64,000 nt of DNA from a virus. The position numbers and the translations under genes were made by a program. The stretch covers positions 25,415 through 89,414 of IMG/VR virus record IMGVR_UViG_3300037148_000025, one strand, 5' to 3'. The notes beneath the pieces were generated by a model. The model made no database searches and was not told where the DNA came from. It worked only from the letters and a program-made list of their open reading frames with translations. How positions within the stretch are numbered: position 1 is the stretch's first letter; each line of letters starts with the position of its first letter. Shown one piece after another: positions 2,282 to 53,382 of the stretch.

Positions 2282-2719
2282 ATGACAATTCGTGAGTATC
2301 AGGAGAAGGATGCTTGCGCGGTCTGCGCTATAAATCGTGCTTGTTTCAAAGATGCAGAACCAGATTCAGAACTTTTAGAGGATTTGAAGAAGTATAAAAC
2401 GTGGGTTGCTGTGGCAGAAAATGGATATATTCAAGGATTTATCTCTGGACATGTTAAACACGGTATACCATACATCGACAATGTTTCTGTTCTTGAACTA
2501 TATAGAGGAATGGGTATAGCAACAGAACTTATAGAGACGTTTGAAAAGAGTTTTAGTTGGCGGGATAGTCTGGGTAATGGTACGGCGTACTGGCTTCAAG
2601 TAGCATCGGACAATCCGGCGCAAAGGTTGTATTTTGATCTTGGATACAGGGTTGAATCTGTAGACGAGAATTTTTATGGCAGGGGAAAACATGCACTATG
2701 CATGCACAAAACTGCTTAG
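2282..2719 (+). CDS. GNAT (RimI-like) N-acetyltransferase
   Basis: Motif A V..LYRGMGIA, plus NPAQRLYFDLGY and FYG motifs. Confidence 0.85.
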   Translation: MTIREYQEKDACAVCAINRACFKDAEPDSELLEDLKKYKTWVAVAENGYIQGFISGHVKHGIPYIDNVSVLELYRGMGIATELIETFEKSFSWRDSLGNGTAYWLQVASDNPAQRLYFDLGYRVESVDENFYGRGKHALCMHKTA

Positions 2720-2954
2720 CAATAAATTGGTATACGATACGCTTTTTCTATATCGCGTATCATATACATTGGTATCGCAGTGGATTACTGTAGAGCCACC
2801 AAATTAGCGTGAGGGAACTAAAGCCGAAGTCTAGGCTAAAGGCAGTGAAAGCACAGTCGGATTACTGGAGCAATTAACTGACGCAAGGGACTTAAATTCT
2901 TAGTAACTCTTGGAGGAGAAGTTTTAGGAGTTTTTTGTACTAAGGGAAATTACA

Positions 2955-3050
2955 ATGGCTAGTTATTCACCATCAAGTAATGGACAGTCAAATCTGCCTC
3001 AGTCAACGGTCAAGTATTATGATAAAAAGTTCCGCGAGAATCTGAAGGCT
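2955..3050 (+). CDS. Major capsid protein, exon 1
   Basis: AAGGGA RBS, ATG at 2955. MASYSPSSNGQSNLPQSTVKYYDKKFRENLKA ends in U, followed by TAA at the intron start. Not in the ORF track. Confidence 0.85.
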
Positions 3051-3298
3051 TAAAATTTGGGTCTTCTAAAACTTGACTATATCGGTGGAACCGTGCTATA
3101 ATGGACACATTATGGCAGACAATACCGAGGAAAGACAGAATGCTGCAATTAAACAACTTTTCACAACCGCATTCTGAATCCCTAGAGACTAATACGTCAG
3201 GAATTGTAGGAAATTTTACTACGATTAAGATAGAGTCCGATCTGCGTGGTGACATGCAGAGTGAGCCAACAGTGATGTTGGATTCCTAAACACAAATA
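3051..3298 (+). ncRNA. Group I intron 1 in capsid gene (no ORF, about 248 nt)
   Basis: P1 GAAGGCU/GGUCUUC with a U.G at the splice site. P3 CUUGAC/GUCAGG. P7 GAGACUA (3185-3191) pairs with the S element AAGAUAGAGUCC (3227-3238). P9 hairpins present. IGS UUUG pairs with the 3' exon CAAA (P10). An alternative in-frame 3' end at 3292 is possible. Confidence 0.88.
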
Positions 3299-3519
3299 CA
3301 AACACCATTCGTAGCATGTTCCGAACGTTTGGACTTGCCTACAAAGAGTGGTAATCAATATGAACTCTTTATGTATGTACCTATGGCTGCTAACACAACT
3401 CAGACTCTTGAGGGAACTGTTGGGGCAGGTATTTCAGTAAACGTTTTGACTACAACGGCCACCATTGGCGAATATGCAGATTACGCTAACTTTAGCTCGC
3501 TTTCGTTAGCTACGGCGAT
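3299..3519 (+). CDS. Major capsid protein, exon 2
   Basis: QTPFVACSERLDLPTKSGNQ...LEG...TIGEYADYANFS..SLATA, a pattern typical of the N4-gp56/HK97-fold capsid N-half. In frame with exon 1 after splicing. Confidence 0.85.
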
Positions 3520-4503
3520 TAATTAATCGGTTGCCGTTAAATGGTTCTATATCGGTGAACCTCTGCTTAGCAGACAATACCGAGGAAACTTGAATGAAAG
3601 AAAAAACTAAGGCGTATTTAGCAGGATTGTTCGACTCAGAAGGAGATGTGTCTATTAGTAGACATATTTCTAAAGAGAGAACGTACGTTGTTAAAGGTAA
3701 AGAATATACTTACGAAAATTACACTTCATATGGAGTAAGTTTGGCAGTATATAATACATATTTACCTTTAATGAAATATTTAGTTAAGCATTTTGGTGGA
3801 ACATACCGAATGCTACGAAAGGAAACTGAAGTTAGACAAAATGTGTATGCGTGGAAACCGGATGGTTCTAAACATGCACTAAAAGTTCTAAAATTAGTTT
3901 ATCCTTATGTTGCAATTAAGAAGAATCAAGTAAATTTATGTATACAATTTTTAGAACTTGAAGGAGAGACAGTTCCAGAAATTAGAAAAAATTTGTATAA
4001 TGAATGTTTAATTGCAAATTCAAGTTCCGTAACGACTGACACGAACCATATTGTTAAATGGAAAATTAATCTACAAAATGCTTATTTCTCCGCGATTTTT
4101 GATGGAGAGGGAACAGCAGCGGTATACCACGGTCCTACTATTTGGATTGCTAATTCAAATAAAAGCCTTCTGGAAACAGCAAAGATTTTATTTAATGCCA
4201 ATAATGTAACTGGCGGATATAGAAAAAATGCAAAATCAGATAGGTTACCTGAGTATAGAGTTTGCGTTCCTGTAGAGCAAATGGAAAAGTTTATTTTAAG
4301 AATACTCCCGTATTCTACAATAAAGCATGAACAACTTCTTTTGGTACTTGAAGCTTTAAGGGGGGTTTCAAAGGAACGGAAGAAGAAAATTCAAGATAAA
4401 CTTTTTATGATTAAACATCCATTGTCAATAAAGATACAGTCTGGACTCACAAGTGATTGTGAGAATTCTCTAACAGAGATGTTAGAAGATAATAACAATA
4501 TCA
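3520..4503 (+). ncRNA. Group I intron 2 in capsid gene (984 nt, carries homing endonuclease)
   Basis: P1 GGCGAU/GUUGCC with U.G. P3 AUGGUUC/GAACCAU. P6 GGAAACUUGAAU/AUUCAAGUUCC. P7 ACGACUG (4032-4038) pairs with AAGAUACAGUCU (4431-4442). P10 UCG/CGA. A 19-nt stretch is identical to intron 1. Confidence 0.88.
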
Positions 4504-4517
4504 CGACAATACTGTAG
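3594..4517 (+). CDS. Intron-encoded double-motif LAGLIDADG homing endonuclease
   Basis: Motifs YLAGLFDSEG and YFSAIFDGEG, LxPY..IK, basic and AT-rich. Confidence 0.92.
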   Translation: MKEKTKAYLAGLFDSEGDVSISRHISKERTYVVKGKEYTYENYTSYGVSLAVYNTYLPLMKYLVKHFGGTYRMLRKETEVRQNVYAWKPDGSKHALKVLKLVYPYVAIKKNQVNLCIQFLELEGETVPEIRKNLYNECLIANSSSVTTDTNHIVKWKINLQNAYFSAIFDGEGTAAVYHGPTIWIANSNKSLLETAKILFNANNVTGGYRKNAKSDRLPEYRVCVPVEQMEKFILRILPYSTIKHEQLLLVLEALRGVSKERKKKIQDKLFMIKHPLSIKIQSGLTSDCENSLTEMLEDNNNITTIL

Positions 4518-5236
4518 AAAACGTAGCACGTGAACTTGCATATCGTCTTGGCGAATCGCTGAGCGGCCTTGTTCGCGCAACGGCTGACGGTGCGGCAGCG
4601 GTTGATACAAGCGTTCTTACAAAGCTTGCAGCAGGCGCATCACCATCAACCGTATTTACAGCACTGAGTCTTGATCAGATTCGTAATGCTGTGCAGAGTC
4701 TTGCAGGTCGTTCAGTTCGTCCGTTTGACGAAGCAAGCAAGACATTTGTAGGTGTAATTCACCCATTTGCTCTGGGCGATGTTCTAGCTGACGCTACTAA
4801 TAACTCACCTATCGACATCTTGAAGCACACTCCAGTTGGTCTAGCACGTATGGAAGACCTTATTTCTGTTGATTTGACAGAAATGATTGAACTTCCTTCA
4901 ACTGGTGTTCGTTTCTTCCAGACTAACCAAGTTACAACCACACCTAGCTACAATTCTGGCGCTGGTGCATCAATCTTTACTGCTCTTCGTACCTACATCT
5001 TCGGACGTGACGGTATCTTTAGCATTAAGCTTGGAGCACAGGGCGACACAGGCTTTGGCGACGGTGAGTGGAGCAATATTAAGTGTAACGTAGTACAAAA
5101 TGCTGCACCTAGCGTTGCTGATCCTGAAGGGTTGATCCCCGGATGGACTAGCTATCGTGTACATTTCACGACTTCACTTGGTCCTGATACAACAATCAGA
5201 ATCCGTGAGATTGACGCTGCAAGCGCAATTAGCTAA
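4504..5236 (+). CDS. Major capsid protein, exon 3 (spliced product about 349 aa)
   Basis: Junction AT|C GAC gives ATAIDNTVENVARELAYRLGESL... It continues into ORF 4691..5236 (IHPF, GVRFFQT, TYIFG, ADP motifs of N4-gp56-like capsids). Exons total 1050 nt, a multiple of 3. Confidence 0.88.
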
Positions 5237-5254
5237 GGCTAAGTCTAACTAATT

Positions 5255-5282
5255 ATGTGGGAGAGAGAAATTTCTCCCACAT
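5255..5282 (+). terminator. Stem-loop after capsid gene (attenuator or processing site)
   Basis: ATGTGGGAGA...TCTCCCACAT inverted repeat with no U tract. Confidence 0.45.
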
Positions 5283-5300
5283 TATGAAATAGGAGAAAAA

Positions 5301-6287
5301 ATGGGAAACGTACAAGAGTCATATCCGGCTCAAACTACAGGTTTAGGTGTAGCGGCTAAAATCTCTGTTGTAGGTAACTTGGCAGGTGGAAGTTCAGTTC
5401 CGGGATATAACAATGTTGTTCTATCTAAGACTGGTGCTACATATGCTGGAGTAACCTATCCAGAAACATTCCAGCTTAGTCCTAACATTGAAGATGCCGG
5501 TGGAAATGAACTTACGCCGGGCACAGCATATGCTTTGACATCTGTTGCAAGTTCTAGTGGTTCTACTGCGGTGTATACAGGAACAATTGTAGCAGGAGCT
5601 AACGCCCTAGTCGGGAAGACATTCGTTGTTGCAGGTTATGTTGCCGCAGCAAACAATGGAACATTCATCTGTACAGCGAATAATGGTTCTACCACAATCA
5701 CGTTGGAGAATGCAAGTGCTACGTCTGCTACAGCGCAGACAGCAACTGCAACTTCTCAGGAAGTTATTGCAGGTAATGTATACGCTTTAACATCGGCTGC
5801 AAATGCTGTTGGTGCTAATACAGTTTACACAGGAACAGTTGTTGCCGCTGCTCACAGTTTGATTGGTGAAACCTTCGTGGTTGCATCTTTCGGGACTGCG
5901 GCAGATAATGGCACATTTGTTTGTGTGGATAACAACGGAACTACAACTTTAACCCTTGCAAACGCGAATGGCGCAGCGGAGTCGGCTCAAACAGCGACTG
6001 CTACGCAGCAAGTAGCTGTAGGCGAGTATTCACTTACATATGTTGTATATGATTTTAAGACAACTAGCACAGGGACAGACAGCCCCTCAAGCACACCTGA
6101 AGCAATTGTATCAGTTAGTGCAAACGGTCTTTTGACTGCTCTTTATCCGGGCGGGAGTGTGGTAGAAGTATCATACCCAACTTTTGATAATGAGTCTGGT
6201 GTAACCGGGGCAGCATCAGGAAATCCAATGTATAACTTGCCGAAAGACAAGATTTACGCAGAGGTTTCGGTAACCGTATTACCGTAA
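5301..6287 (+). CDS. Virion decoration/structural protein with two internal beta-rich repeats and an Ig-like C-terminus
   Basis: Follows the capsid gene. A/T/G/S-rich, with duplicated YALTS..VYTGT..NNGTF.C units and an SS.PE.IVSVSANGLLTAL..G Ig-like (Big_2) pattern. Confidence 0.6.
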   Translation: MGNVQESYPAQTTGLGVAAKISVVGNLAGGSSVPGYNNVVLSKTGATYAGVTYPETFQLSPNIEDAGGNELTPGTAYALTSVASSSGSTAVYTGTIVAGANALVGKTFVVAGYVAAANNGTFICTANNGSTTITLENASATSATAQTATATSQEVIAGNVYALTSAANAVGANTVYTGTVVAAAHSLIGETFVVASFGTAADNGTFVCVDNNGTTTLTLANANGAAESAQTATATQQVAVGEYSLTYVVYDFKTTSTGTDSPSSTPEAIVSVSANGLLTALYPGGSVVEVSYPTFDNESGVTGAASGNPMYNLPKDKIYAEVSVTVLP

Positions 6288-6310
6288 TCGTTCTAATACT
6301 GGAGGGTATT

Positions 6311-6586
6311 ATGATGACACAAAATGATGACGTAGACAATATGGAAGTTCTACGTCATCACAATCGAGCACTGCGCAATGTTAACAAAAGCTTGCGCAGT
6401 GGTCAGAAAAGTTCTCAGGAACATTCAGATGAGTTGTTTTTGGAACTGTGCAAGTCGGAAACAGACAGTCAGATTGCGATGGAAAAAATCAGAGCGTTTG
6501 GCGGGATAGAATGCGGCTCTGGTGATTATAGTTTTATAGTCGATAAGTGCCTACAAGCCTTAAGCGCCATAGACCAAAGCAAATAA
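6311..6586 (+). CDS. Hypothetical protein
   Basis: GGAGG RBS, 91 aa, in operon. Confidence 0.6.
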   Translation: MMTQNDDVDNMEVLRHHNRALRNVNKSLRSGQKSSQEHSDELFLELCKSETDSQIAMEKIRAFGGIECGSGDYSFIVDKCLQALSAIDQSK

Positions 6587-6612
6587 TCACAGGAAGTTCT
6601 TTAGGAGATAGC

Positions 6613-6798
6613 ATGGCCGGTGAAGGAACTAACTACTTTAATAAAAAGGTTGCACAGTATGAGCCGGTTGTATCTGCGGCTCAGCAAGCAACCGCAAAAC
6701 TTGCAGCGGCAAAACAGGGACTTTCTTTGTTAGGTAAACCTAACATTACTCAGGCAGAAGCAGAAAGTTTAGTTGCTTTGTACGTTCAGGCAGAGTAA
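6613..6798 (+). CDS. Hypothetical protein
   Basis: AGGAGA RBS before ATG 6613. Confidence 0.6.
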   Translation: MAGEGTNYFNKKVAQYEPVVSAAQQATAKLAAAKQGLSLLGKPNITQAEAESLVALYVQAE

Positions 6799-6803
6799 AA
6801 GAC

Positions 6804-6831
6804 GCGGGGCTTCGGCTCCGCGCAAAGTTTT
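6804..6831 (+). terminator. Hairpin with UUCG loop, probable terminator
   Basis: GCGGGGC-TTCG-GCTCCGC followed by AAAGTTTT. Confidence 0.5.
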
Positions 6832-6989
6832 CATATATATGAAAAACCATATGATGTGGATTACTGAGTATGGATTAACATATATATGCTTGCGGTCACT
6901 TAGCCCGCGCAGGCGGTTGACTGCACTGCTTTATTCCAAGGGTCGCGGCCTTTATTTTAGAGCAGACACGTTTTTGCAAGCTGGAGGGC

Positions 6990-7643
6990 TTGATGACAAT
7001 TACACCAGAAGAAGTCCAGAAGCTACAGGGGACACGCCTCGACGCTACGGCACCATGGGACAGCTACAGTGCAGAGTTAGATACTAAGATGACCCCGGAG
7101 TTAGCCGCTCAAGTGGCAGAGTACTCCACAAAGTATTACCAAGATGCTCCATCGAGTAATCAGTCTCAGGAGGTATTGGCAGAGTTAAAAGAAGGAAATG
7201 ACGAGAATGCAAAGCAGTATCAGTGGCTGAAACCGGAAGAGTATGCAGATGTCGAAGCCAGAATCGGTAAGGTAATGACTCATGAGGAGTTCATATATAA
7301 ACTTAGACGAGCCGGTTTAACATGCTTCTATAAGCAGCATCCACAACCGGACAAAGCTGTTTTGTTTGTGTCGCGCACTGGATTTTCTGAAGCTGAAGTA
7401 GCTTGTTGGGCACAAATCGGGCAGATGCCTGAATTATCGATTATGAACTTCGATCGGTATGGTATACCACTTGCAGAGAGGAGACGTGGTTGGCGTACTT
7501 GCCTTCTACAGCTAATGTTGAAAGAAATGATTACAGAGGAGATGGCAAATCGTATATTTGGTAAACCTCGTAGCGATGCGGCGTTTGATAGGTATAATGC
7601 AACGGTACAGGAGATTAGGAAGATTCACACCGGTGTACAGTAA
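6990..7643 (+). CDS. Hypothetical protein
   Basis: GGAGG RBS, 217-aa ORF. Confidence 0.7.
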   Translation: MMTITPEEVQKLQGTRLDATAPWDSYSAELDTKMTPELAAQVAEYSTKYYQDAPSSNQSQEVLAELKEGNDENAKQYQWLKPEEYADVEARIGKVMTHEEFIYKLRRAGLTCFYKQHPQPDKAVLFVSRTGFSEAEVACWAQIGQMPELSIMNFDRYGIPLAERRRGWRTCLLQLMLKEMITEEMANRIFGKPRSDAAFDRYNATVQEIRKIHTGVQ

Positions 7644-7669
7644 TAGATAGAAAAATAGGAGAGGAGACT

Positions 7670-8260
7670 ATGACAAATTTGAATGATATTGCGGGAGATG
7701 TTTCTACACATTCGGCAGAGACACCAAAGCCTAGCAAGAAAATTGATGCTTTGGATGCGGAACTTAAACAACTTGCATTGGAAAATGCAAAGCTTGAACT
7801 TCAGGAGAAAACACTTAATTTACAAGACCTTCAAGAGCGCCTTGCTGAGCGTGGGATGAAGCGTGAAAACAGGCTTCAGCGAAGTGTTATCAATGGTCAA
7901 ACATTGAAGCAGCTTTCCGCAATCGACAAAGCAACACAGAACCGCTGTAACCACAAGAAAGGCGGAAATGGTGCTCAGGGTGTTGTAGGCGGAAAGGGGG
8001 ATGACTCTCAGTACGCCGTACTAAAGCATACGTTTGCTAATGGGGATATGTGGGTTCGCTGTTTACGTTGCGGCAAGACTTGGAAGCCTCCTGTCAGACG
8101 CGCTTATAAGACTGACGAAGCCTATAAGGGAGCATGGGCAGTATATGAGGAAGCTAAGGAATTTCAGACAAGAAATACACCTTCAAGTGCATATTTGTTC
8201 CGCTACTCGGATAATGGAGAGTTTTATAGGGAAGCCACAGAAGCTACAACATTGAAATAA
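7670..8260 (+). CDS. Coiled-coil protein with C-terminal Zn-binding motif
   Basis: Heptad region followed by CNH...H...CLRC. Confidence 0.65.
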   Translation: MTNLNDIAGDVSTHSAETPKPSKKIDALDAELKQLALENAKLELQEKTLNLQDLQERLAERGMKRENRLQRSVINGQTLKQLSAIDKATQNRCNHKKGGNGAQGVVGGKGDDSQYAVLKHTFANGDMWVRCLRCGKTWKPPVRRAYKTDEAYKGAWAVYEEAKEFQTRNTPSSAYLFRYSDNGEFYREATEATTLK

Positions 8261-8272
8261 TAAGGATCAAAC

Positions 8273-9622
8273 ATGGCATCAATAGTTCAAATACCTTTTG
8301 TAACTAGCGCAGGCGGGAACTTCACCTTACCACACACTTTAGGTGTAGTTCCCGGTTCCGTTGTTTTTGAGTTAACCAGTGTAGGAAGTGTTTGGTTTCA
8401 GCCCACACGTTTTGACGCAAACAATCTTTATTTGATAGCATCAGGTGCAGGAGTAACAGGTTATGCTATTGTTTATGCCAGCGGAAGTCCATTTCTTTCT
8501 TCATCTGTTTTTGGAAATTCAACAATCCAGCTTCAAGAAGTTGTAGATGATGCATCTACTTTAGGAGATGTAGCCCCCGCCCTTGCGACGGGTGGATTTT
8601 CTATGTCACCAGCATTATCTATTGCCAATGATGTTATGCAGGCAATTATCAATGGTGGAAATGCAGGTCAAGCATATAACTGGAAGTGGAATCGTTATAA
8701 TCTTCCTACATTCCCAGTAAACAGTGTGCAGCAAGACTACTTTATCCCGAATTTGTTTAATATTGGTTGGCTTGAGAGTGCATGGATGGTAGATATTAAC
8801 CAGACATCGGTTCCTAAGCAGAGATTTCCAATTGAGATCGACAGGGACTTGTTGGTAACTAATAACCAAGGTGGATATACGGCCAAGGTTTCGTGGTTGC
8901 CGAACAGTATGTTGATGACAGGAACATGGGGAGCAGCGCCACAAGGACCAACAGCAGGAAATCCAAGCGGTCAGATTACTGTATCCGGTCCCAGTATGAG
9001 CGGGCAGCAGAATCCGGGTCCGGGTGTAATATATACTAATCCTCTTGGAACTTTGCTTACTCCATATAATGCTACGACTGCAATACAAGACCCCAATGGA
9101 AACTTATGGTGTCTTACAACATATGGAATTTGTGGGAGTGTGGAACCAACGTGGCCTGCCAGTCCTACATATCCTACTTTGCGTAATCCAAATTTGCTTT
9201 CAACAACGGTAACCGATGGAGGTTGTGTTTGGACAGCAATTAATCCGGTTGGTCAAGGTATCAGGGTTAGTCCTACCCCTCCTCAGTCTGGGGTAGTATG
9301 GGTAATACAAGTTGTTGGGCAAATGGTTGCCCCCAGATTCACCAATCTTACACAATATTTGAACCCTCTGCCCGATAATTTTGAGTGGGCTTTCAAAAGT
9401 GGGTTTTTCGCACAATGTTATAGACGAAATCCCGATCCCAAAGTTAGAGCCAGATTTGCTCAAGAGCAGCAACTATGGCTGGAGTCCTTAGATAAGGCTG
9501 TTAGACAGGCAGATAGGGAACCGGATGATTTCGGATTTTATCCGGGAAATGTAGGGGTTATGGACACAGGTTTTGGAATCAATCAGATTACACCCTCACT
9601 TCCGTTTGGACCATGGAGTTAG
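8273..9622 (+). CDS. Head-tail adaptor-like virion protein
   Basis: YNWKWNR..QQDY and C-terminal PLPDNF motifs are shared with the next gene, a pattern of adaptor proteins. Confidence 0.55.
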   Translation: MASIVQIPFVTSAGGNFTLPHTLGVVPGSVVFELTSVGSVWFQPTRFDANNLYLIASGAGVTGYAIVYASGSPFLSSSVFGNSTIQLQEVVDDASTLGDVAPALATGGFSMSPALSIANDVMQAIINGGNAGQAYNWKWNRYNLPTFPVNSVQQDYFIPNLFNIGWLESAWMVDINQTSVPKQRFPIEIDRDLLVTNNQGGYTAKVSWLPNSMLMTGTWGAAPQGPTAGNPSGQITVSGPSMSGQQNPGPGVIYTNPLGTLLTPYNATTAIQDPNGNLWCLTTYGICGSVEPTWPASPTYPTLRNPNLLSTTVTDGGCVWTAINPVGQGIRVSPTPPQSGVVWVIQVVGQMVAPRFTNLTQYLNPLPDNFEWAFKSGFFAQCYRRNPDPKVRARFAQEQQLWLESLDKAVRQADREPDDFGFYPGNVGVMDTGFGINQITPSLPFGPWS

Positions 9623-9641
9623 TAATTTAGTATAAAAACTA

Positions 9642-9685
9642 CGGGAGACGTCTTGGCATTTCGCCCGTCTCCCATTTTTATTTTT
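9642..9685 (+). terminator. Rho-independent terminator
   Basis: GGGAGACG...CGTCTCCC followed by ATTTTTATTTTT. Confidence 0.65.
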
Positions 9686-9702
9686 AGTTGCACGGAGAGG
9701 TT

Positions 9703-10629
9703 ATGGCACTGAGTTCTATAAAATTGATACAGACGCTTGAATGGGCAAAACGCTTTATCTCACAGCGTCCTACAGCATTAGGAAATTTCAATGAGCCTGC
9801 TGTTAGCAGTGCTAATACAGTTCTTCAGACCATTGTTAGTCCTCCATTCTCGTGGCCGTGGAACCGTGCAGTAACCGGGTTTGTTTGTGTTCCGGGACAG
9901 CAGGATTATACCCTGTTTAACTGGCAAGTTGCTACTAATGTATCAGCAGGAACTGTTACAGTGGACAGCAACGGTAATTCACAGATTGTGACCACTGGTG
10001 GAGTTACGGGAAGCACTGCTCCAACGTGGAACCCAACCACAGGACAAGTTACGAACGATGGATCAACCGTGGTTTGGATGAATTCTGGTCCAATCGGTTT
10101 GTCCGGGGGGTCTACAACTTATAATTTTGGTTGGATCGAGACGGCATCCATAAAAGCGACTAATCCGAATACTTCAGCCCAAGAGTGGAAGGAGATCGAA
10201 GTTAAGTTGTGTCTTTCCGCTGAATCTGCGAAATCCAGACCACACGATATTTCGGCACAACTATTTGACTCATTGGGGAACGTAACTTTCAGACTTATGC
10301 CTTGCCCAGATCAGGCATACCCAGTGTCCATCACTATTCAGCAGAAGCCAACATTAATCACAAGTCTTAATGGAACATGGGCACCAATTCCAGACTCGTA
10401 TTCCCATATATATAATTGGGGAATGCTGAGTCTTTTATTTTTGTTCACAGACGATCCCCGCGCTCAGATGGCAGAGCAGAAATTTTTAGCACATATTTTG
10501 AGTTCTAGCCAAGGTTTAACTCAGACACAGTTTAATATTTTCCTGTCTCAATGGCAGACGGTCACAGGGTTGCAGCAGACGCTTCCGGCGTCTAACCAGC
10601 AAGGAATTCAAGGGCGAGGGAGTGTATAA
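9703..10629 (+). CDS. Head-tail adaptor-like virion protein (paralogue of 8273..9622)
   Basis: FSWPWNR..GQQDY, P.PDQAY, PIPDSY. RBS GGAGAGG before ATG 9703. Confidence 0.55.
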   Translation: MALSSIKLIQTLEWAKRFISQRPTALGNFNEPAVSSANTVLQTIVSPPFSWPWNRAVTGFVCVPGQQDYTLFNWQVATNVSAGTVTVDSNGNSQIVTTGGVTGSTAPTWNPTTGQVTNDGSTVVWMNSGPIGLSGGSTTYNFGWIETASIKATNPNTSAQEWKEIEVKLCLSAESAKSRPHDISAQLFDSLGNVTFRLMPCPDQAYPVSITIQQKPTLITSLNGTWAPIPDSYSHIYNWGMLSLLFLFTDDPRAQMAEQKFLAHILSSSQGLTQTQFNIFLSQWQTVTGLQQTLPASNQQGIQGRGSV

Positions 10630-23537: not shown

Positions 23538-26393
23538 ATGCCAACTCCAAGTTCAGCAGTAGTAGATACTCAAGATTCAGCGTCTAGCCCATATCAGGGA
23601 GTGTCAACTCCTCCTCCCGATGGCACGGCGGGAGATGTTGGTAACACATCTGTAGCAACTGCTCCAGCGCAACCGGTGCAAGCTGCACAGCCAACTCAAG
23701 CAGCGCAAGCGACACAGCCAGCGCAGCCAACGCAGGCGACGCAGCCGGGGCAACAGGCACAGCCAGCACAAGACGGCAAACCCTCTCCTGCGTCTAAAAA
23801 CGCTACATCTGTGACTCCTAATGCTCCGGTAAATCCCGCTACTCCTGATCCTTCTCTAGAAGCGTCCAAAAAGACGGCGTCAAGGGTTACAAAAATAGCA
23901 CAAATTTTTACTGGTGGTCCCCGCTATTCCTATACGGTTGATGACTCTGGAAAGACGATAAAAACTGAGGTTCCCGTTAGTGGGAAGCATTTAGGTCTTG
24001 CTATTGCTATGGAAATGTTATCAGGAGCATTTGCAGGATTGGGAGCAAAGCCGGGTCCGAATTTCTTAGGTAACGCTGGAGCAGCCGGTCTTCAAAAAGG
24101 TGAGGAAATTGCAGGTCAGAGACAGCAACAGGATCAAGCAGCACAAAAACAGGCACAGGAAGATTTTGCAAATAAAGCACAAGTGACTGAGACAAACCTT
24201 AGAATGTACTCTATGGCTCGTACTGTGGGGAATATGGAGGAAGAATCAACCGATAAGTATATTGGTCAGTATACTCCAACCTTGAACTTGCTTAAAGAGA
24301 AGGCTCCTAACTTCATCGAAGGTCCGGTTAAGTATAGTGATTTTGCAAAGTACAATGTAACGGCGGATAATGCAATTCCATTTATGCGTGTTGCACGTTT
24401 GGGGTCAGACGGTAAACAGGTGAAGAATGCCCAAGGTGTACCACAATGGGATGTTGATTACTACATTGTGAAACCCGGACTAAAACTTACTAATTTGTTC
24501 ACAAAAGACGACATGGCTACAGCAAAAGAAATGGGATTGTCATGGGCAGGAAACGACTCAGTGATGACATCTCCAATCGAGTTAGCTAATTTCTTAAATA
24601 TTAAGTCAAAGCTTGCTAGCTGGAATGTTGGTAATGCTAAAGTTGCTAGTATGTTTAAAGAGGGAGATGCAGCGGGACAGAATCCTCAAGGAAGTTCGGT
24701 AACTCCTACGAAGTCTCCTGAAATTAAAGACCCAAAAATTTCCTCATTAGCTGAAACAGCGGCTACGACTAATGGAGTTCGTCCCGAATATGTAAAGGCT
24801 TTGATTACACAAGAGAGCCACGGTAATCCGAATGCTGTAAGTCCTACAGGAGCCAAAGGTCTGATGCAGCTTACCCCATCTATGGGAAACTTGTATCCTA
24901 AAAATCCATTTGATCCAGAGCAGAATGTGAATGCTGGTACGGCATACCTTTCTCAATTATTGAAGACCTATAAGGATGATCCTAAAAAAGCTTTTGCAGC
25001 TTATTATAGTGGTCCTTCTGCGATTGGCCCCAATGGAGAAATACAAGATACCGCCCAACACTCTGCGGAAAATACACAGAATTATGTTAATAGTGTGTCG
25101 AGTATGGTTGGTTTGGGAGAGAAACCATCACCTAACCCAAATGCTGTTCCTAATGCGGCCCCGGCTAATAGATTGTCGTTAGAACAATGGAATGCCAAGA
25201 ACCCTACTACAGGTTCAGATATGGAAGCTTTTATGGGAGCTATGAACGGGCTTACATCCGACAAAGCTGATATGATTGGTGACGCACTTGCTCATCTTCA
25301 TTCTACAGGAAATGACTCAGCGGCTAATAATATTGCCGCATTTATGAATCAAGGAAATCCTGATTTTATTCGTGATCACGACGATGCGCTTACTGCGCAG
25401 CGTTTGCAGGAAAAATCTGATGTAGGAGTGAAAGCAGCAGAAGAGAAAGCTAACTTTAAAGCAGCGAGTGATGCAAAAATATCATCTGCTCAGCAGGCAT
25501 TTTTAGTTCCTCCTGATAATTTCAAATTTGATCCTAAAGTTTTTGATATGAATTCCGTTGATGCCAAAGCTGCACTGATTAAGCAGGGAGTCAAGATTCC
25601 GTTTAACTTTGATGCCCTGTGGTTAGTAGGACACCTTAAAGCACCAATAAGCACCATTCTTCCAGTGAGAACAGCGCAGAAATTTTCTCCCAATGAAATG
25701 GATGCTCAAACGGGTGCGTCATACATCAATGAGTTTATTAATCCTGGATATGACCAAAAGAATTATATACCGGCTCAGAAAGTACTTGCTGAGAATGCAT
25801 CTGGAAACTCTAAGAATGGCATGGCTATTCAGAATGCTGGAGTGGCTGCGCAGCATTTAACTAATTTAGAGCAGGCAGCTAGAGCAATGAATGGCGATTT
25901 AACTACAATGCCCTATCTAAACTCCCTAATAAATACTTATCATTTCCAGACCGGCGCATCTCCGGTTGTAATTTATAATGCAATTCTTCCAATTGCAATT
26001 CAAGAGGCCAGCAAGGTAAGTGCAGGCGGGGCGGTTCCATATGAAGATCAGGTAAAGAAGAATGAAGATAACTTTAAGGGTGCTCTTACTTTAGCACAGA
26101 AAGAAGGGGCTATCGAGGCTGTAACTAAACTGATGTATGGAAGAATTAGCGCAATTGATGAAAATACTTATGATATTACTCAGACGCATTTAATCAATGT
26201 TCCCAGTGGAGCAACTAAAATTTTTAAAAACTATGGGTTAGACACGCCGTGGGAGAAAAGCGGGGCCGGGCAACAACAACAATTTAAACCCAATGATACT
26301 TCTCAATATGCACAGATAAGCAAGTCCGGTAAAATTGGCATGGATGGTTCGGGTCATAAGTATATTATCGCAACGGGTCAACCGACGCAGTAA
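23538..26393 (+). CDS. Ejection protein with soluble lytic transglycosylase (SLT) domain
   Basis: QESHGNPNAVSPTGAKGLMQL...FDPEQNVNAGTAYL...AAYYSG at about 24750-25110, and AQP repeats at the N-terminus. Confidence 0.85.
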   Translation: MPTPSSAVVDTQDSASSPYQGVSTPPPDGTAGDVGNTSVATAPAQPVQAAQPTQAAQATQPAQPTQATQPGQQAQPAQDGKPSPASKNATSVTPNAPVNPATPDPSLEASKKTASRVTKIAQIFTGGPRYSYTVDDSGKTIKTEVPVSGKHLGLAIAMEMLSGAFAGLGAKPGPNFLGNAGAAGLQKGEEIAGQRQQQDQAAQKQAQEDFANKAQVTETNLRMYSMARTVGNMEEESTDKYIGQYTPTLNLLKEKAPNFIEGPVKYSDFAKYNVTADNAIPFMRVARLGSDGKQVKNAQGVPQWDVDYYIVKPGLKLTNLFTKDDMATAKEMGLSWAGNDSVMTSPIELANFLNIKSKLASWNVGNAKVASMFKEGDAAGQNPQGSSVTPTKSPEIKDPKISSLAETAATTNGVRPEYVKALITQESHGNPNAVSPTGAKGLMQLTPSMGNLYPKNPFDPEQNVNAGTAYLSQLLKTYKDDPKKAFAAYYSGPSAIGPNGEIQDTAQHSAENTQNYVNSVSSMVGLGEKPSPNPNAVPNAAPANRLSLEQWNAKNPTTGSDMEAFMGAMNGLTSDKADMIGDALAHLHSTGNDSAANNIAAFMNQGNPDFIRDHDDALTAQRLQEKSDVGVKAAEEKANFKAASDAKISSAQQAFLVPPDNFKFDPKVFDMNSVDAKAALIKQGVKIPFNFDALWLVGHLKAPISTILPVRTAQKFSPNEMDAQTGASYINEFINPGYDQKNYIPAQKVLAENASGNSKNGMAIQNAGVAAQHLTNLEQAARAMNGDLTTMPYLNSLINTYHFQTGASPVVIYNAILPIAIQEASKVSAGGAVPYEDQVKKNEDNFKGALTLAQKEGAIEAVTKLMYGRISAIDENTYDITQTHLINVPSGATKIFKNYGLDTPWEKSGAGQQQQFKPNDTSQYAQISKSGKIGMDGSGHKYIIATGQPTQ

Positions 26394-34509: not shown

Positions 34510-34585
34510 GGGAGTGTAGCTCAGTTGGGAGAGCGCAAGTTTTGCATACTTGAGGTCGCAGGTTCGATCCCTGTCACTTCCACCA
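34510..34585 (+). tRNA. tRNA-Ala(UGC)
   Basis: Cloverleaf with G3.U70, anticodon loop UUUGCAU, T-loop UUCGAU, A73 and encoded CCA. Confidence 0.93.
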
Positions 34586-34603
34586 AAACTATCAGGGAGA
34601 AGT

Positions 34604-34816
34604 ATGCATAAGCATGTTTTTGACACAAAAGTAGGTTACGAAATGCCGGGACCGCCCTATTACAAAATTCTTATATTTTGTAAGTGTGGTGTGTTTGAAA
34701 CATATGATGTCGTTAGTGGAGAAAGAGGAGCATGGGAAAACCAGAAGAGAATAAGTCGGTACGCTGTACGAGGGTTAGAGACAGGGAAATTCTCGGAGAC
34801 TACTACCGAGATTTAG
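34604..34816 (+). CDS. Small hypothetical protein
   Basis: RBS GGGAG before MHKH. CKCG motif. Confidence 0.45.
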   Translation: MHKHVFDTKVGYEMPGPPYYKILIFCKCGVFETYDVVSGERGAWENQKRISRYAVRGLETGKFSETTTEI

Positions 34817-34970
34817 CTAACAATTATGGTCACTATGTTCCCCATACTAAGAAGGATGGAACAGTAACTGCTCCTGCATTGCAATGGCCTTTCCATCCAG
34901 ACATTTCTGAGTATGAGAATTTGTAGAATTGGTATATGATACGCGTCTTTTACCAACTGGTATTATATAC

Positions 34971-35045
34971 TTCGGGTTCGTTCAATGGTTAGGACACCGG
35001 GCCTTGAACCCGTGAATCGGAGTTCGAGTCTCTGACCCGGAGCCA
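34971..35045 (+). tRNA. tRNA-Gln(UUG), atypical C33
   Basis: U1-A72, G73, CCA. Loop CCUUGAA and T-loop UUCGAG. Confidence 0.8.
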
Positions 35046-35067
35046 GAAAGGACAGCACGGAAGTTAA

Positions 35068-35143
35068 TCCGGGATAGCTCAATTGCTAGAGCATTCGCCC
35101 TGTAAGCGAAAGTGTGAAGGTTGAAGTCCTTTTCCCGGAGCCA
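35068..35143 (+). tRNA. tRNA-like gene, anticodon UGU (Thr) on an Asn/Gln-like acceptor
   Basis: Acceptor UCCGGGA/UCCCGGA-G-CCA. Anticodon stem UUCGC/GCGAA with loop CCUGUAA. Non-canonical D-loop (UGCUA) and T-loop (UUGAAG). Confidence 0.7.
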
Positions 35144-35146
35144 AAC

Positions 35147-35221
35147 ATACTCATGGTCTAACGGCATGATGCACGTCTCCAACACGTTGAGGTTAGGGTT
35201 CGAATCCTTATGAGTATGCCA
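35147..35221 (+). tRNA. tRNA-Trp(CCA)
   Basis: A1-U72, G73, CCA. Loop CUCCAAC and T-loop UUCGAAU. Confidence 0.82.
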
Positions 35222-46641: not shown

Positions 46642-47823
46642 CTACTTATTATCCTTTTCTAGAAAAACTTTGCTCACAATCTTCAATTGTGCTCTCCCGA
46701 CGCCGCGAACATGTCTCTCCGGAAACGCTTTGATGACCACGCCTTCTCTCATATTTGTAGCACCATGCACATATGAAATCCCATCAACAATCTTCATAAT
46801 ACCTTCTTTGCTGTATGGAACCTTAAAGAAAAGCATCGGCACAGAGCGTGTCCACAACTGTTGCAGAGTAACACTCTCATCTTCCTTGTCATAGCTGAGC
46901 CAGTGACCATCTGGATGACGCACATCAAAGACGAACAGTTGTGGGTCTTTGCTTCCGTATTCATAGCCCTTTTGGGTAGGAGTTACCTCTCCCCAAAGAA
47001 CGTAGTCCTCATGTGCTCGGCACCATTCTTCAATCCAAGGCTGAGACTTCAGCACCTTCCTAAAGATTGAGTTGGAACTCGGACTTGTCCACTGCTTATG
47101 AGAGCCAGCGTACAGCATACCATCCGTGAAAATAAACCGCGCATTGCTGCCATGAATCTTCTCTGTGACTATGACTGGTTCACCTTCTCGGAAGACGTTA
47201 GGGTAATTTTTCAGAGCATCTACGTCATAAATTGGTATACATAGTTTACCAGCATCTTCTAGGAATTTCTCCTGTCCACGGGTGAAGGTAACATACCGCC
47301 AGATCATCTTAATCCAGCCATTGATAGAGCGCGGCCAACGGCGCTTGCCTCTGGGTGCTGCTCCCTGATCTCCGTCTGTACGTTCTACTCCTTCGTCCGG
47401 GTCATAGTGTGTGATTCCAAGTGTATCAGATACATCTGTTCCTTCACGCCAGTCAGACTCTACAAACTGTCTAGTTAAGGTACTGTCTACCAATTCATCA
47501 AAATCGTACACTGGCATAAGCAGTCCTTCAGACCACTCGCCACGGAACTTACGAACAGTAATTCGACGCCTTCTGTCAGAGATAGGGGCATCAGAATTAA
47601 TAGGGTCTACATAACTTTCCCAGATAAACCTGAAAGATTCTGTTTGTGGTACGACCGAATCTGGTTGAATGTAAACTGCGAACTCTCCAACCTTAAACTG
47701 TCCTTTTTTGGACACAACTTGATATTCACCTATAGGAATTATCTCTAACGTGTCCGCGTTGGTGTGAGGCAGAACCTCCTTCACAACCACAATATTTGCT
47801 TGATGATTAGCTTTCTTCTCCAT
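46642..47823 (-). CDS. RNA ligase, DRB0094/Rnl2-like with N-terminal OB-like domain
   Basis: PH.NAD.LE, YI.PDS, F(R)G..SEGL, TEKIHGSN, GEV, FVFD and REGVV..K. Confidence 0.9.
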   Translation of the reverse strand: MEKKANHQANIVVVKEVLPHTNADTLEIIPIGEYQVVSKKGQFKVGEFAVYIQPDSVVPQTESFRFIWESYVDPINSDAPISDRRRRITVRKFRGEWSEGLLMPVYDFDELVDSTLTRQFVESDWREGTDVSDTLGITHYDPDEGVERTDGDQGAAPRGKRRWPRSINGWIKMIWRYVTFTRGQEKFLEDAGKLCIPIYDVDALKNYPNVFREGEPVIVTEKIHGSNARFIFTDGMLYAGSHKQWTSPSSNSIFRKVLKSQPWIEEWCRAHEDYVLWGEVTPTQKGYEYGSKDPQLFVFDVRHPDGHWLSYDKEDESVTLQQLWTRSVPMLFFKVPYSKEGIMKIVDGISYVHGATNMREGVVIKAFPERHVRGVGRAQLKIVSKVFLEKDNK

Positions 47824-52342: not shown

Positions 52343-53382
52343 TTTCCCCTCAAGTTTCCTACTACTCTCCAGATTGCGTCTTGATGTTTTCCAGAAATTC
52401 CTGTGTCCATCATGGCAAAACAAACTGGAGCGTATACCTTGTTCTCAGGCAGGTTAAAAAACTCTGCAAACTCTTTTCGTAGAGTAAATTCTACCAATGC
52501 TCGTTTAACAAGTTCTGCTGAATGCTTCCTTACTGCCTCATACATATCATCTATAACCGGAAGATTTAGCTTCGCCAGTTCAATATCCTCATAGAACTTT
52601 TTACGAGTTGTAAGGAAACTGGGATGCTTAATCTTCAACTTCAGCGGAGCGTGCACCGGTATAGCATACGTGGCTACATAACCCTCATGTCCAGGTCTGT
52701 CTATCTCTATTGCATCTTTTAAAGGAATACAATACCTTGCTGTGACAGAAATACCATTAAGTAGAGCATAGTCTAACATATCCTTATAGTTAAGTTCCTC
52801 CCCAGTTTCTTTGTTTATCAAAGCAAGAAGTACCAAACCATCTGCCGGATAGGTGATACAGTGCGGTTGAATGTCTTGACAAATCATTTCAAATATGGGT
52901 GTATAACCTATGGGCCATACAAAATTACTAGGTCTGTTAATTATTCCATAAGAAAGATTACCTTGAAACCATTCTTTTGCCCACTTTGCATGTACAGAAC
53001 TGAAGGAACCTTTGCTGGCAATTCCCCACTCTCCTTTATAGTTCCAGAAGATTCCCAGATTACCGTTGATCTTCTCTGTGATAGTAGGGGGGCCGTAAAG
53101 CTTCTCAATAGATTCGACATTGCGTCCGTAGGTTTCTTCCTGTCCTTCTGTTTCATAGGCGAAAAACTTCTCAAATGGGCGAGCTATGATCTTGTCGGTG
53201 TCATTCTCCACAATCAATCCACGACACTTCTTGGTAACAGAGTCCCATATATTATCGTAGACTGCCCTACGTCCATAGCAGTAAAGAGATAGGGGCAAAT
53301 CAGGATGCTTGTTCCTCATCACAAGCCCTAGCTTGAGATAATTAGCGAGTTTGTCGGTATCCAAGTAGTCTGATAGATTCAT
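52339..53382 (-). CDS. RNA ligase, T4 Rnl1-like
   Basis: CRGLI..ARPF.KFF, EKINGNLG, SKGSF.S, FE, EGYV and KIK. Confidence 0.88.
   Translation of the reverse strand: MNLSDYLDTDKLANYLKLGLVMRNKHPDLPLSLYCYGRRAVYDNIWDSVTKKCRGLIVENDTDKIIARPFEKFFAYETEGQEETYGRNVESIEKLYGPPTITEKINGNLGIFWNYKGEWGIASKGSFSSVHAKWAKEWFQGNLSYGIINRPSNFVWPIGYTPIFEMICQDIQPHCITYPADGLVLLALINKETGEELNYKDMLDYALLNGISVTARYCIPLKDAIEIDRPGHEGYVATYAIPVHAPLKLKIKHPSFLTTRKKFYEDIELAKLNLPVIDDMYEAVRKHSAELVKRALVEFTLRKEFAEFFNLPENKVYAPVCFAMMDTGISGKHQDAIWRVVGNLRGK

Follow-up and report, generated by a model that had tools for sequence, protein, structure and literature searches.

Group I introns are treated as ending universally in a guanosine, the omega-G, and this base is used for delimiting them in annotation; in the literature searched, two natural exceptions are found, both isolated. 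One is the 23S rRNA intron of Coxiella burnetii, which is reported to lack a canonical omega-G (Raghavan et al. 2007, J Bacteriol 189:6572). The other is the hexacoral mitochondrial intron ND5-717, whose terminal G is replaced by A; its exons are perfectly ligated in vivo, as seen by RNA sequencing, with a lower efficiency than those of a canonical intron (PMC8146996; PMC6545197). Two introns with a terminal A (omega-A) are described here from a stretch of 64,000 nucleotides (the window, whose numbering is used throughout), i.e. positions 25,415 to 89,414 of IMG/VR record IMGVR_UViG_3300037148_000025, a complete phage genome of 89,414 bp with direct terminal repeats. They interrupt its major capsid gene, which is of the N4-gp56 type. 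As a preliminary description made from the sequence had proposed, both end in A, which is confirmed by protein homology and by the RNA joints 3050 to 3299 and 3519 to 4504; both are precisely removed in natural infections.

The capsid gene spans 2955–5236 on the plus strand, as do all the features described below unless stated otherwise, and comprises three exons. Exon 1 (2955–3050) has 32 codons, the last being AAG GCU, and is delimited by the list of open reading frames (ORFs), by residues 1–32 of homologues and by the RNA joint at 3050. Exon 2 (3299–3519) and exon 3 (4504–5236, through the stop codon) were placed by alignment with homologues and by RNA contigs, one of which (run X16, record 9) joins 2963–3050 to 3299–3519, while others pass from 3519 to 4504 and continue beyond 5300. 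Exon 3 is 84–87% identical to the closest capsid homologues. Eight uninterrupted homologues (343–347 amino acids) align over both gaps and give the protein junctions FRENLKA/QTPFVAC and SLATAI/DNTVENV. All donor/acceptor pairs preserving frame and length were enumerated and each was scored against the homologues, which leaves one coding tie per intron. For intron 1, either the exon ends at U3050 and the last intron base is A3298, or these are C3049 and U3297; for intron 2, they are either U3519 and A4503 or U3520 and C4504. A terminal G at 4505 would require a 5' site after A3521 and would turn an invariant D into N. Around the junction of intron 1, the sequence is free of G from 3282 to 3311, so that there is indeed no G between the last P9 hairpin and exon 2.

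The segment 2900–5300 is present in 14 peat-metagenome DNA runs (98–100% of sampled words) and in 6 peat metatranscriptome runs, and four RNA runs were compared with it. The RNA evidence consists of assembled contigs rather than raw reads and comes from RNA runs only; excised intron ends and an added guanosine are invisible in it. Contigs of all four runs carry the joint 3050 to 3299, which skips 248 bases (a piece starting with TA and ending with TA), and the joint 3519 to 4504, which skips 984 bases (TA to CA). At every joint, there is no base that would fit both sides ('both = 0'). Up to 88+221 letters flank the first joint and up to 221+797 the second, and some contigs show 3299–3519 fused to 4504–5300 and further with 0 mismatches. 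The joint sequences, GGCU/CAAACA and GGCGAU/CGACAA, are unambiguous and the last intron bases are therefore A3298 and A4503; when 3' sites following a G, such as 4505, were checked against these joints, the A-ending junctions held. Joined contigs reach a depth of 130–160 in runs X15–X17 versus 0–33 for intron-bearing contigs, and in X16 intron 1 has a depth of 0 between exons at about 130. Depth is usually greater in spliced contigs than in those containing an intron, by about 2-fold to more than 20-fold. In metagenome contigs of the Joint Genome Institute, a collection that does not cover this genome, the joined 30-mer of junction 2 and the control 30-mer of the unspliced 3' boundary were both found 0 times.

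Intron 1 (3051–3298) is a 248-nt group I intron devoid of any ORF and ending in A3298, as supported by Rfam, by the RNA joint and by a covariance model called R1 (see below). It matches the Rfam family Intron_gpI (RF00028) with 50.3 bits for a gathering score of 50 (E = 8e-10), and its minimum free energy fold (z = -4.83) recovers P1, P4, P5, P6a, P8, P9 and P9.1. P1 pairs 3044–3050 (GAAGGCU) with 3060–3066 (GGUCUUC), including the wobble U3050.G3060, and P10 pairs the guide 3056–3059 (UUUG) with 3299–3302 (CAAA); an automatic P1/P10 search gave a 6-bp extension plus the U.G and this 4-bp P10. P7 (3185–3238), drawn from Rfam and family alignments, is made of G3185-C3238, a bulged A3186 and 3187–3190 paired with 3234–3237, G3187-C3237 being the guanosine-binding pair; it encloses P3' (3196–3201) and P8 (3205–3209/3219–3223). 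In the tail (3239–3298), covariation supports the J7/9 base G3239, the P9.0 pairs A3240-U3297 and U3241-A3296, and the hairpins P9 (3242–3259) and P9.1 (3266–3281), both with GUGA loops. A CUAAAC motif (3285–3290) precedes the omega base A3298. This motif is nearly invariant 6–7 nt upstream of the 3' splice site in both A- and G-ending introns of the family.

Intron 2 (3520–4503) is a 984-nt group I intron with insertions in P6 and P8 and A4503 as its last base, as supported by the RNA joint and R1. Its P1 pairs 3514–3519 (GGCGAU) with 3530–3535 (GUUGCC), with U3519.G3530, and its P10 is a 3-bp pairing of 3527–3529 (UCG) with 4504–4506 (CGA), both being retrieved by the P1/P10 search. In family alignments, the 5' strand of P7 lies at 4034–4038, with G4034 as the guanosine-binding base, and P3' (4043–4048) pairs with 3542–3547. 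According to the alignment and pair counts, the 3' strand of P7 is 4437–4441 (C4441 facing G4034), P9.0 consists of G4444-C4502 and A4445-U4501 just before A4503, and the hairpins are P9 (4446–4463, GUGA loop) and P9.1 (4470–4485, GAGA loop). Intron 2 shares the P3–P6 block, P7 and the P9 domain with members of the family. It was missed by Rfam at a permissive threshold over 3480–4540, where the sole match was a chance microRNA, because P6 and P8 are filled by an ORF (3594–4517, 307 amino acids) for a predicted LAGLIDADG homing endonuclease. The product of this ORF matches LAGLIDADG_3 (PF14528) with 35.4 bits for a cut-off of 22.5, and its N-terminus matches LAGLIDADG_1 (PF00961) with 17.4 bits, under the cut-off of that family. 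The ORF begins in the P6 loop, crosses P7, P3', P8, P9 and P9.1 and stops 14 nt inside exon 3; since it overlaps the 3' half of the core, the same bases serve as coding sequence and as ribozyme core.

Both introns thus possess the U.G of P1 at the start given by the RNA joint, the G-C pair of P7 (G3187-C3237 and G4034-C4441) and P10, pairings that agree with those first described for this locus, and also P9.0; their exons are precisely ligated in the RNA contigs. They lack the terminal omega-G. Since two further natural introns are known that do without it, the A end bears on whether these introns can be called canonical, not on whether they belong to group I. The two introns also share 19 identical nucleotides (3115–3133 and 3570–3588, within the P3–P6 block of both) and matching P9 hairpins; these similarities are genuine but do not mark omega-A introns, as they are common to omega-G members of the family.

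A compensating change tracking omega-A was sought in P7, J6/7 and J8/7 of the family alignments and none was found. The P7 variants AACGACU/AGUCUG and AGAGACU/AGUCCG each occur with A and with G ends, the guanosine-binding columns do not differ between omega-A and omega-G relatives, and the pair is G-C in every omega-A member. No position in P7 or J8/7 distinguishes A-ending from G-ending introns, so that the guanosine pocket is unchanged. The feature that does accompany the splice site is a 2-bp P9.0, in which the dinucleotide after the G adjoining the 3' strand of P7 pairs with the dinucleotide that precedes the terminal base. It covaries in one register, with the combinations GAUC/AU, GACC/GU, GAAC/UU, GAGC/CU, GGAC/UC (that of intron 2), GUAC/UA and GUGC/CA. 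Among 36 unique 3' domains of standard length, P9 is 99.6% and P9.1 97.2% paired, with abundant compensatory changes in both. Their inner P9.0 pair is AU in 13, UA in 9, CG in 4 and GC in 1, as counted in a fixed register that mis-registers 6-nt tails. Where P9.0 is perfect in this register (19 standard-length domains), the base that follows it is A in 13 and G in 6, never a pyrimidine, which fits a purine pocket. All 15 omega-A introns mapped (see below) have both P9.0 pairs in Watson-Crick form and a P10 of 3–7 bp (mean 5.5), whereas omega-G introns of the same family have 0–2 P9.0 pairs and a P10 of 0–7 bp; the sequences being related, this contrast should be viewed as a consistent pattern rather than as a statistic.

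The covariance model that had been suggested as a check, R1, was built from the family 3' domain and run over the window and 197 sources. In the window, it retrieves only 3229–3298 (84.5 bits) and 4433–4503 (60.2 bits), both matches stopping exactly at the RNA-mapped splice sites. Over the 197 sources, it gives 118 unique matches, 56 of them with both P9.0 pairs, and tabulation of the terminal base of these 56 gives G in 26, A in 22 and C or U in 8, so that A is common. At least four of the eight C/U ends were discarded as alignments shortened by an extra hairpin, the homology-mapped ends lying downstream and being A or G (shortened alignments: L108/L124 at site q188, L141/L041 at q55, L104/L184 and L062 at q53).

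The survey of relatives relied on 80 IMG/VR loci found with the capsid protein and at least 116 found with a 16-nt core motif. Among the loci listed, 45 unique capsid-gene introns were mapped by protein homology; 15 of them end in A and the remainder in G. The A-ending introns occupy six sites, namely q32 (that of intron 1), q53, q92, q106 (that of intron 2), q188 and q190, and for 5 of the 15 a single junction scores best. At q32, the introns of L013, L017/L019, L028 and L102 also end in AUA/CAAAC, the one from L028 being 231 nt long and devoid of any ORF. At q53, three omega-A introns (L062, L096, L184) and one omega-G intron (L051) share the 5' exon, P1, its U.G, the guide and a 7-bp P10 and differ in the terminal base only; guide pairing and reading frame therefore place the splice site after the A.

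Two sequence families of introns can be distinguished, and both introns of the window belong to family A, which is widespread among phages (more than 116 IMG/VR contigs). Family B introns are compact, lie in the same capsid genes and have the core ACUCUGAUUGACU...GAGAGACUAAG...AUAGUCCGAAC; examples are found in L021, L032, L050, L024 (997–1220) and L017 (1628–1824). The mapped family B introns all end in G (8/8), and their P9.0 does not show the covariation of family A (GACC with CUG in L021/L048, GAUC with UUG in L056). In a tree built on the core blocks, the tail being excluded, 10 omega-A introns including intron 1 form a clade (support 95/88). A second group contains four A-ending introns and one G-ending intron, and intron 2 is placed weakly beside the omega-G intron of L055. 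Parsimony on this tree gives four changes of the terminal base. The clade, the identical ends of the q32 relatives and the 15 A ends among 45 capsid introns bear out the existence of a lineage of omega-A phage introns, as had been proposed.

The Coxiella intron and the phage introns are natural group I introns of the bacterial world that lack a terminal G and are spliced, the splicing of the former being reported in the literature. It is a single intron in the rRNA gene of one bacterium, whereas the phage introns form a mobile family in protein-coding genes, with A- and G-ending siblings at the same sites; as far as tested, the two are not sequence relatives. ND5-717 shares with the phage introns the terminal A and the exact exon ligation in RNA. 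It is obligatory, strictly vertical and organellar, has a giant P8 insertion and, in some taxa, is spliced with a reduced efficiency and with back-splicing. The phage introns, by contrast, are optional mobile elements, of which some harbour a LAGLIDADG gene, and their transcripts are found mostly in spliced form. Coxiella, given in the preliminary description as the known omega-A exception, thus stands as a precedent but not as the sole one, since ND5-717 is also an omega-A intron (PMC8146996; PMC6545197). Engineering offers a further comparison, in which A can likewise be the terminal base and in which recognition involves this base and the P7 pocket jointly, as a single unit. The Tetrahymena ribozyme was reportedly engineered (Been and Perrotta 1991; Michel et al. 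1989) to carry an A-U pair at the guanosine site together with a terminal A. There, the pocket was altered to match the A, whereas it stays G-C in every phage omega-A intron.

Introns are also known in the capsid and tail genes of Cluster J mycobacteriophages (PMC3706429) and in orf142 of phage Twort, which has three of them according to a citation in PMC10136302. They are self-splicing introns, as those studied here would be, and likewise lie inside late phage genes, some with homing endonucleases and several per gene. No report of a Cluster J or Twort intron lacking omega-G is known to us, their sequences not being part of the comparison. Full-text literature searches turned up no description of an omega-A intron in a phage. 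The terminal-A trait itself is already known from Coxiella and ND5-717. What is new, as far as the literature searched shows, is its occurrence in phages, the presence of two such introns in one capsid gene with accurate removal seen in RNA, the alternation of A and G in one mobile family with an identical core, and the constant association of A with a covarying P9.0. The exception is common here: about one third of the capsid introns mapped by homology show it, as do 22 of the 56 model matches with full P9.0. Intron-mapping rules that demand a terminal G will consequently misplace exon boundaries in phage genomes. Omega-A introns lying beside omega-G siblings with the same core, sometimes at the same site, also constitute a natural matched set for weighing the guanosine pocket against P9.0 and P10 in the choice of the 3' site. 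The 3' domains at L024 (857–926), L059 (3478–3547) and L163 (2542–2611), which have GAUC at J7/9 and a tail ending in AUG, are omega-G counterparts of the AUA tail of intron 1 and would be useful matched controls.

Taken as a whole, both elements are true group I introns from a single mobile family of phages, and they probably undergo ordinary two-step splicing with a 3' site set by P9.0 and P10, according to the following model. Exogenous guanosine, bound in the unchanged G-C site of P7, would attack after the U of the P1 wobble (U3050 or U3519), and the freed 5' exon would then attack the phosphate after the terminal A. This A would occupy the purine pocket weakly. Since A is expected to bind the guanosine pocket poorly, the 3' site would be held mainly by two helices, namely the strictly conserved 2-bp P9.0, in which J7/9 pairs with the dinucleotide preceding the A and which stacks on P9, and the 3–7 bp P10, in which the guide pairs with the start of the next exon. 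We infer that catalysis would be carried out by the RNA without a helper, with guanosine as the first nucleophile and with P9.0 and P10 compensating for the weak A. Several points weigh against this model. Protein-free self-splicing is putative, and the RNA basis is made of assembled contigs from RNA runs, in which intron ends and an added guanosine are invisible. Replacing omega-G by A in the Tetrahymena ribozyme is said to impair exon ligation severely, and efficient helper-free ligation with a G-C pocket is therefore unexpected a priori. Besides, the P9.0 and P10 contrast comes from related sequences and not from independent events, and a single G/A change is all that the tree requires on its well-supported branches.

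An alternative is a helper-dependent second step, the ribozyme performing 5' cleavage and perhaps hydrolysis at the 3' site while exon joining would need a protein, either an RNA ligase of the phage that would close the nick kept on the guide, the LAGLIDADG protein as a maturase or a host factor. The phage does encode an Rnl2-like RNA ligase (about 46678–47181) and an Rnl1-like one (about 52780–53229), both on the minus strand, a LAGLIDADG ORF is present in intron 2, and in hexacorals splicing of the omega-A intron is less efficient than that of a neighbouring canonical intron (PMC6545197). However, the Rnl2-like gene is carried by 4/5 and the Rnl1-like gene by 5/5 complete relatives, although the family A motif is absent from four of these five phages, three of which have uninterrupted capsid genes. 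The ligases, being kept in intron-free relatives, are therefore a feature of the clade that is not tied to the introns, which suggests a role in tRNA repair or counter-defence rather than in splicing; the phage also has four tRNA genes (34510–35218, plus strand). The two ligases that had been proposed to assist splicing thus exist, but such an assistance is unsupported. Moreover, neither intron 1 (248 nt) nor the 231-nt omega-A intron of L028 has an ORF, and the junctions are exact in the four RNA runs, with no alternative joint listed. A need for a helper, whichever it is, therefore seems unlikely. The related proposal that a slower exon ligation would act as a timer on capsid synthesis is without support, since spliced RNA predominates, in terms of steady-state depth and not of kinetics. 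It is also quite doubtful that the terminal A has been favoured by selection instead of being tolerated as a defect. In one version of this idea, the A may be read by the G-C pocket only when protonated at N1, exon ligation being pH-sensitive, which may link cases from acidic niches, i.e. peat phages (the closest cultured relative infects Acidobacteriota) and Coxiella. In another, the A may suppress guanosine-dependent side reactions (3'-site hydrolysis, intron circularisation and reverse splicing) in a late gene whose expression is very high. If either were true, recognition by P9.0 and P10 alone would be a general and evolvable alternative to omega-G.

Two other explanations concern the junctions themselves. 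No splicing would be involved if the joined RNA contigs came, as DNA or as transcripts, from alleles without introns that this strain of phage has in the peat samples. Capsid genes lacking introns are common among the relatives, RNA libraries may contain DNA, and joined forms were compared in RNA runs only. Yet, over up to 221+797 bases, there are 0 mismatches between the joined contigs and the window, and the joined 30-mers are missing from all 196 viral loci, the nearest sequences being 5–7 mismatches off. The 14 DNA runs hold 98–100% of the intron-bearing words, and the absence of intron 1 in X16 is opposite to the pattern expected if DNA of the known genome had been carried over. Furthermore, both introns would have to be missing exactly at the sites defined by P1 and P10, which makes this explanation very improbable. 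As for a shift of the junctions that would restore a terminal G, for instance at 4505 with a 5' site after A3521, a G does lie 2 nt downstream of A4503 and, in q53 and q92 relatives, directly after the A. It would nevertheless conflict with the unambiguous RNA joints and alter conserved residues or the reading frame, and the junction of intron 1 is flanked by 17 nt without G on its upstream side and by 13 nt on its downstream side; such a shift is hardly credible.

Megablast of 2900–5300 against the phage collection gave no match. The closest cultured relative of the window phage is Tunturiibacter phage Tunturi_3 (97.6 kb; PP885686.1, 4284–9997, i.e. L199), whose host is an Acidobacteriota isolate from Finnish soil. 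The window phage therefore probably infects peat Acidobacteriota. The capsid gene of Tunturi_3 is 83.5% identical over exon 3 and is annotated as a single coding sequence of 1032 nt without intron; the neighbouring genes of both phages match (an acetyltransferase, then the capsid gene). This cultured phage with an intron-less capsid gene provides an experimental entry point.

In this phage group, introns concentrate in the capsid gene, a hot-spot with at least a dozen insertion sites (approximately at residues 23/24, 32, 53, 55, 89/90, 92/93, 106, 188, 190, 293–297 and 317–320) and up to four or five introns per gene, as exemplified among loci L001–L196 by L102 (3290–7040), L119 (4651–7915) and L091 (6159–9716). 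An AT-rich viral contig of 73.8 kb (L194) has at least 11 matches to the 3'-domain model within about 7.5 kb (2684–10029), some of them predicted to end in A, which points to a putative, very intron-dense region in an unrelated phage.

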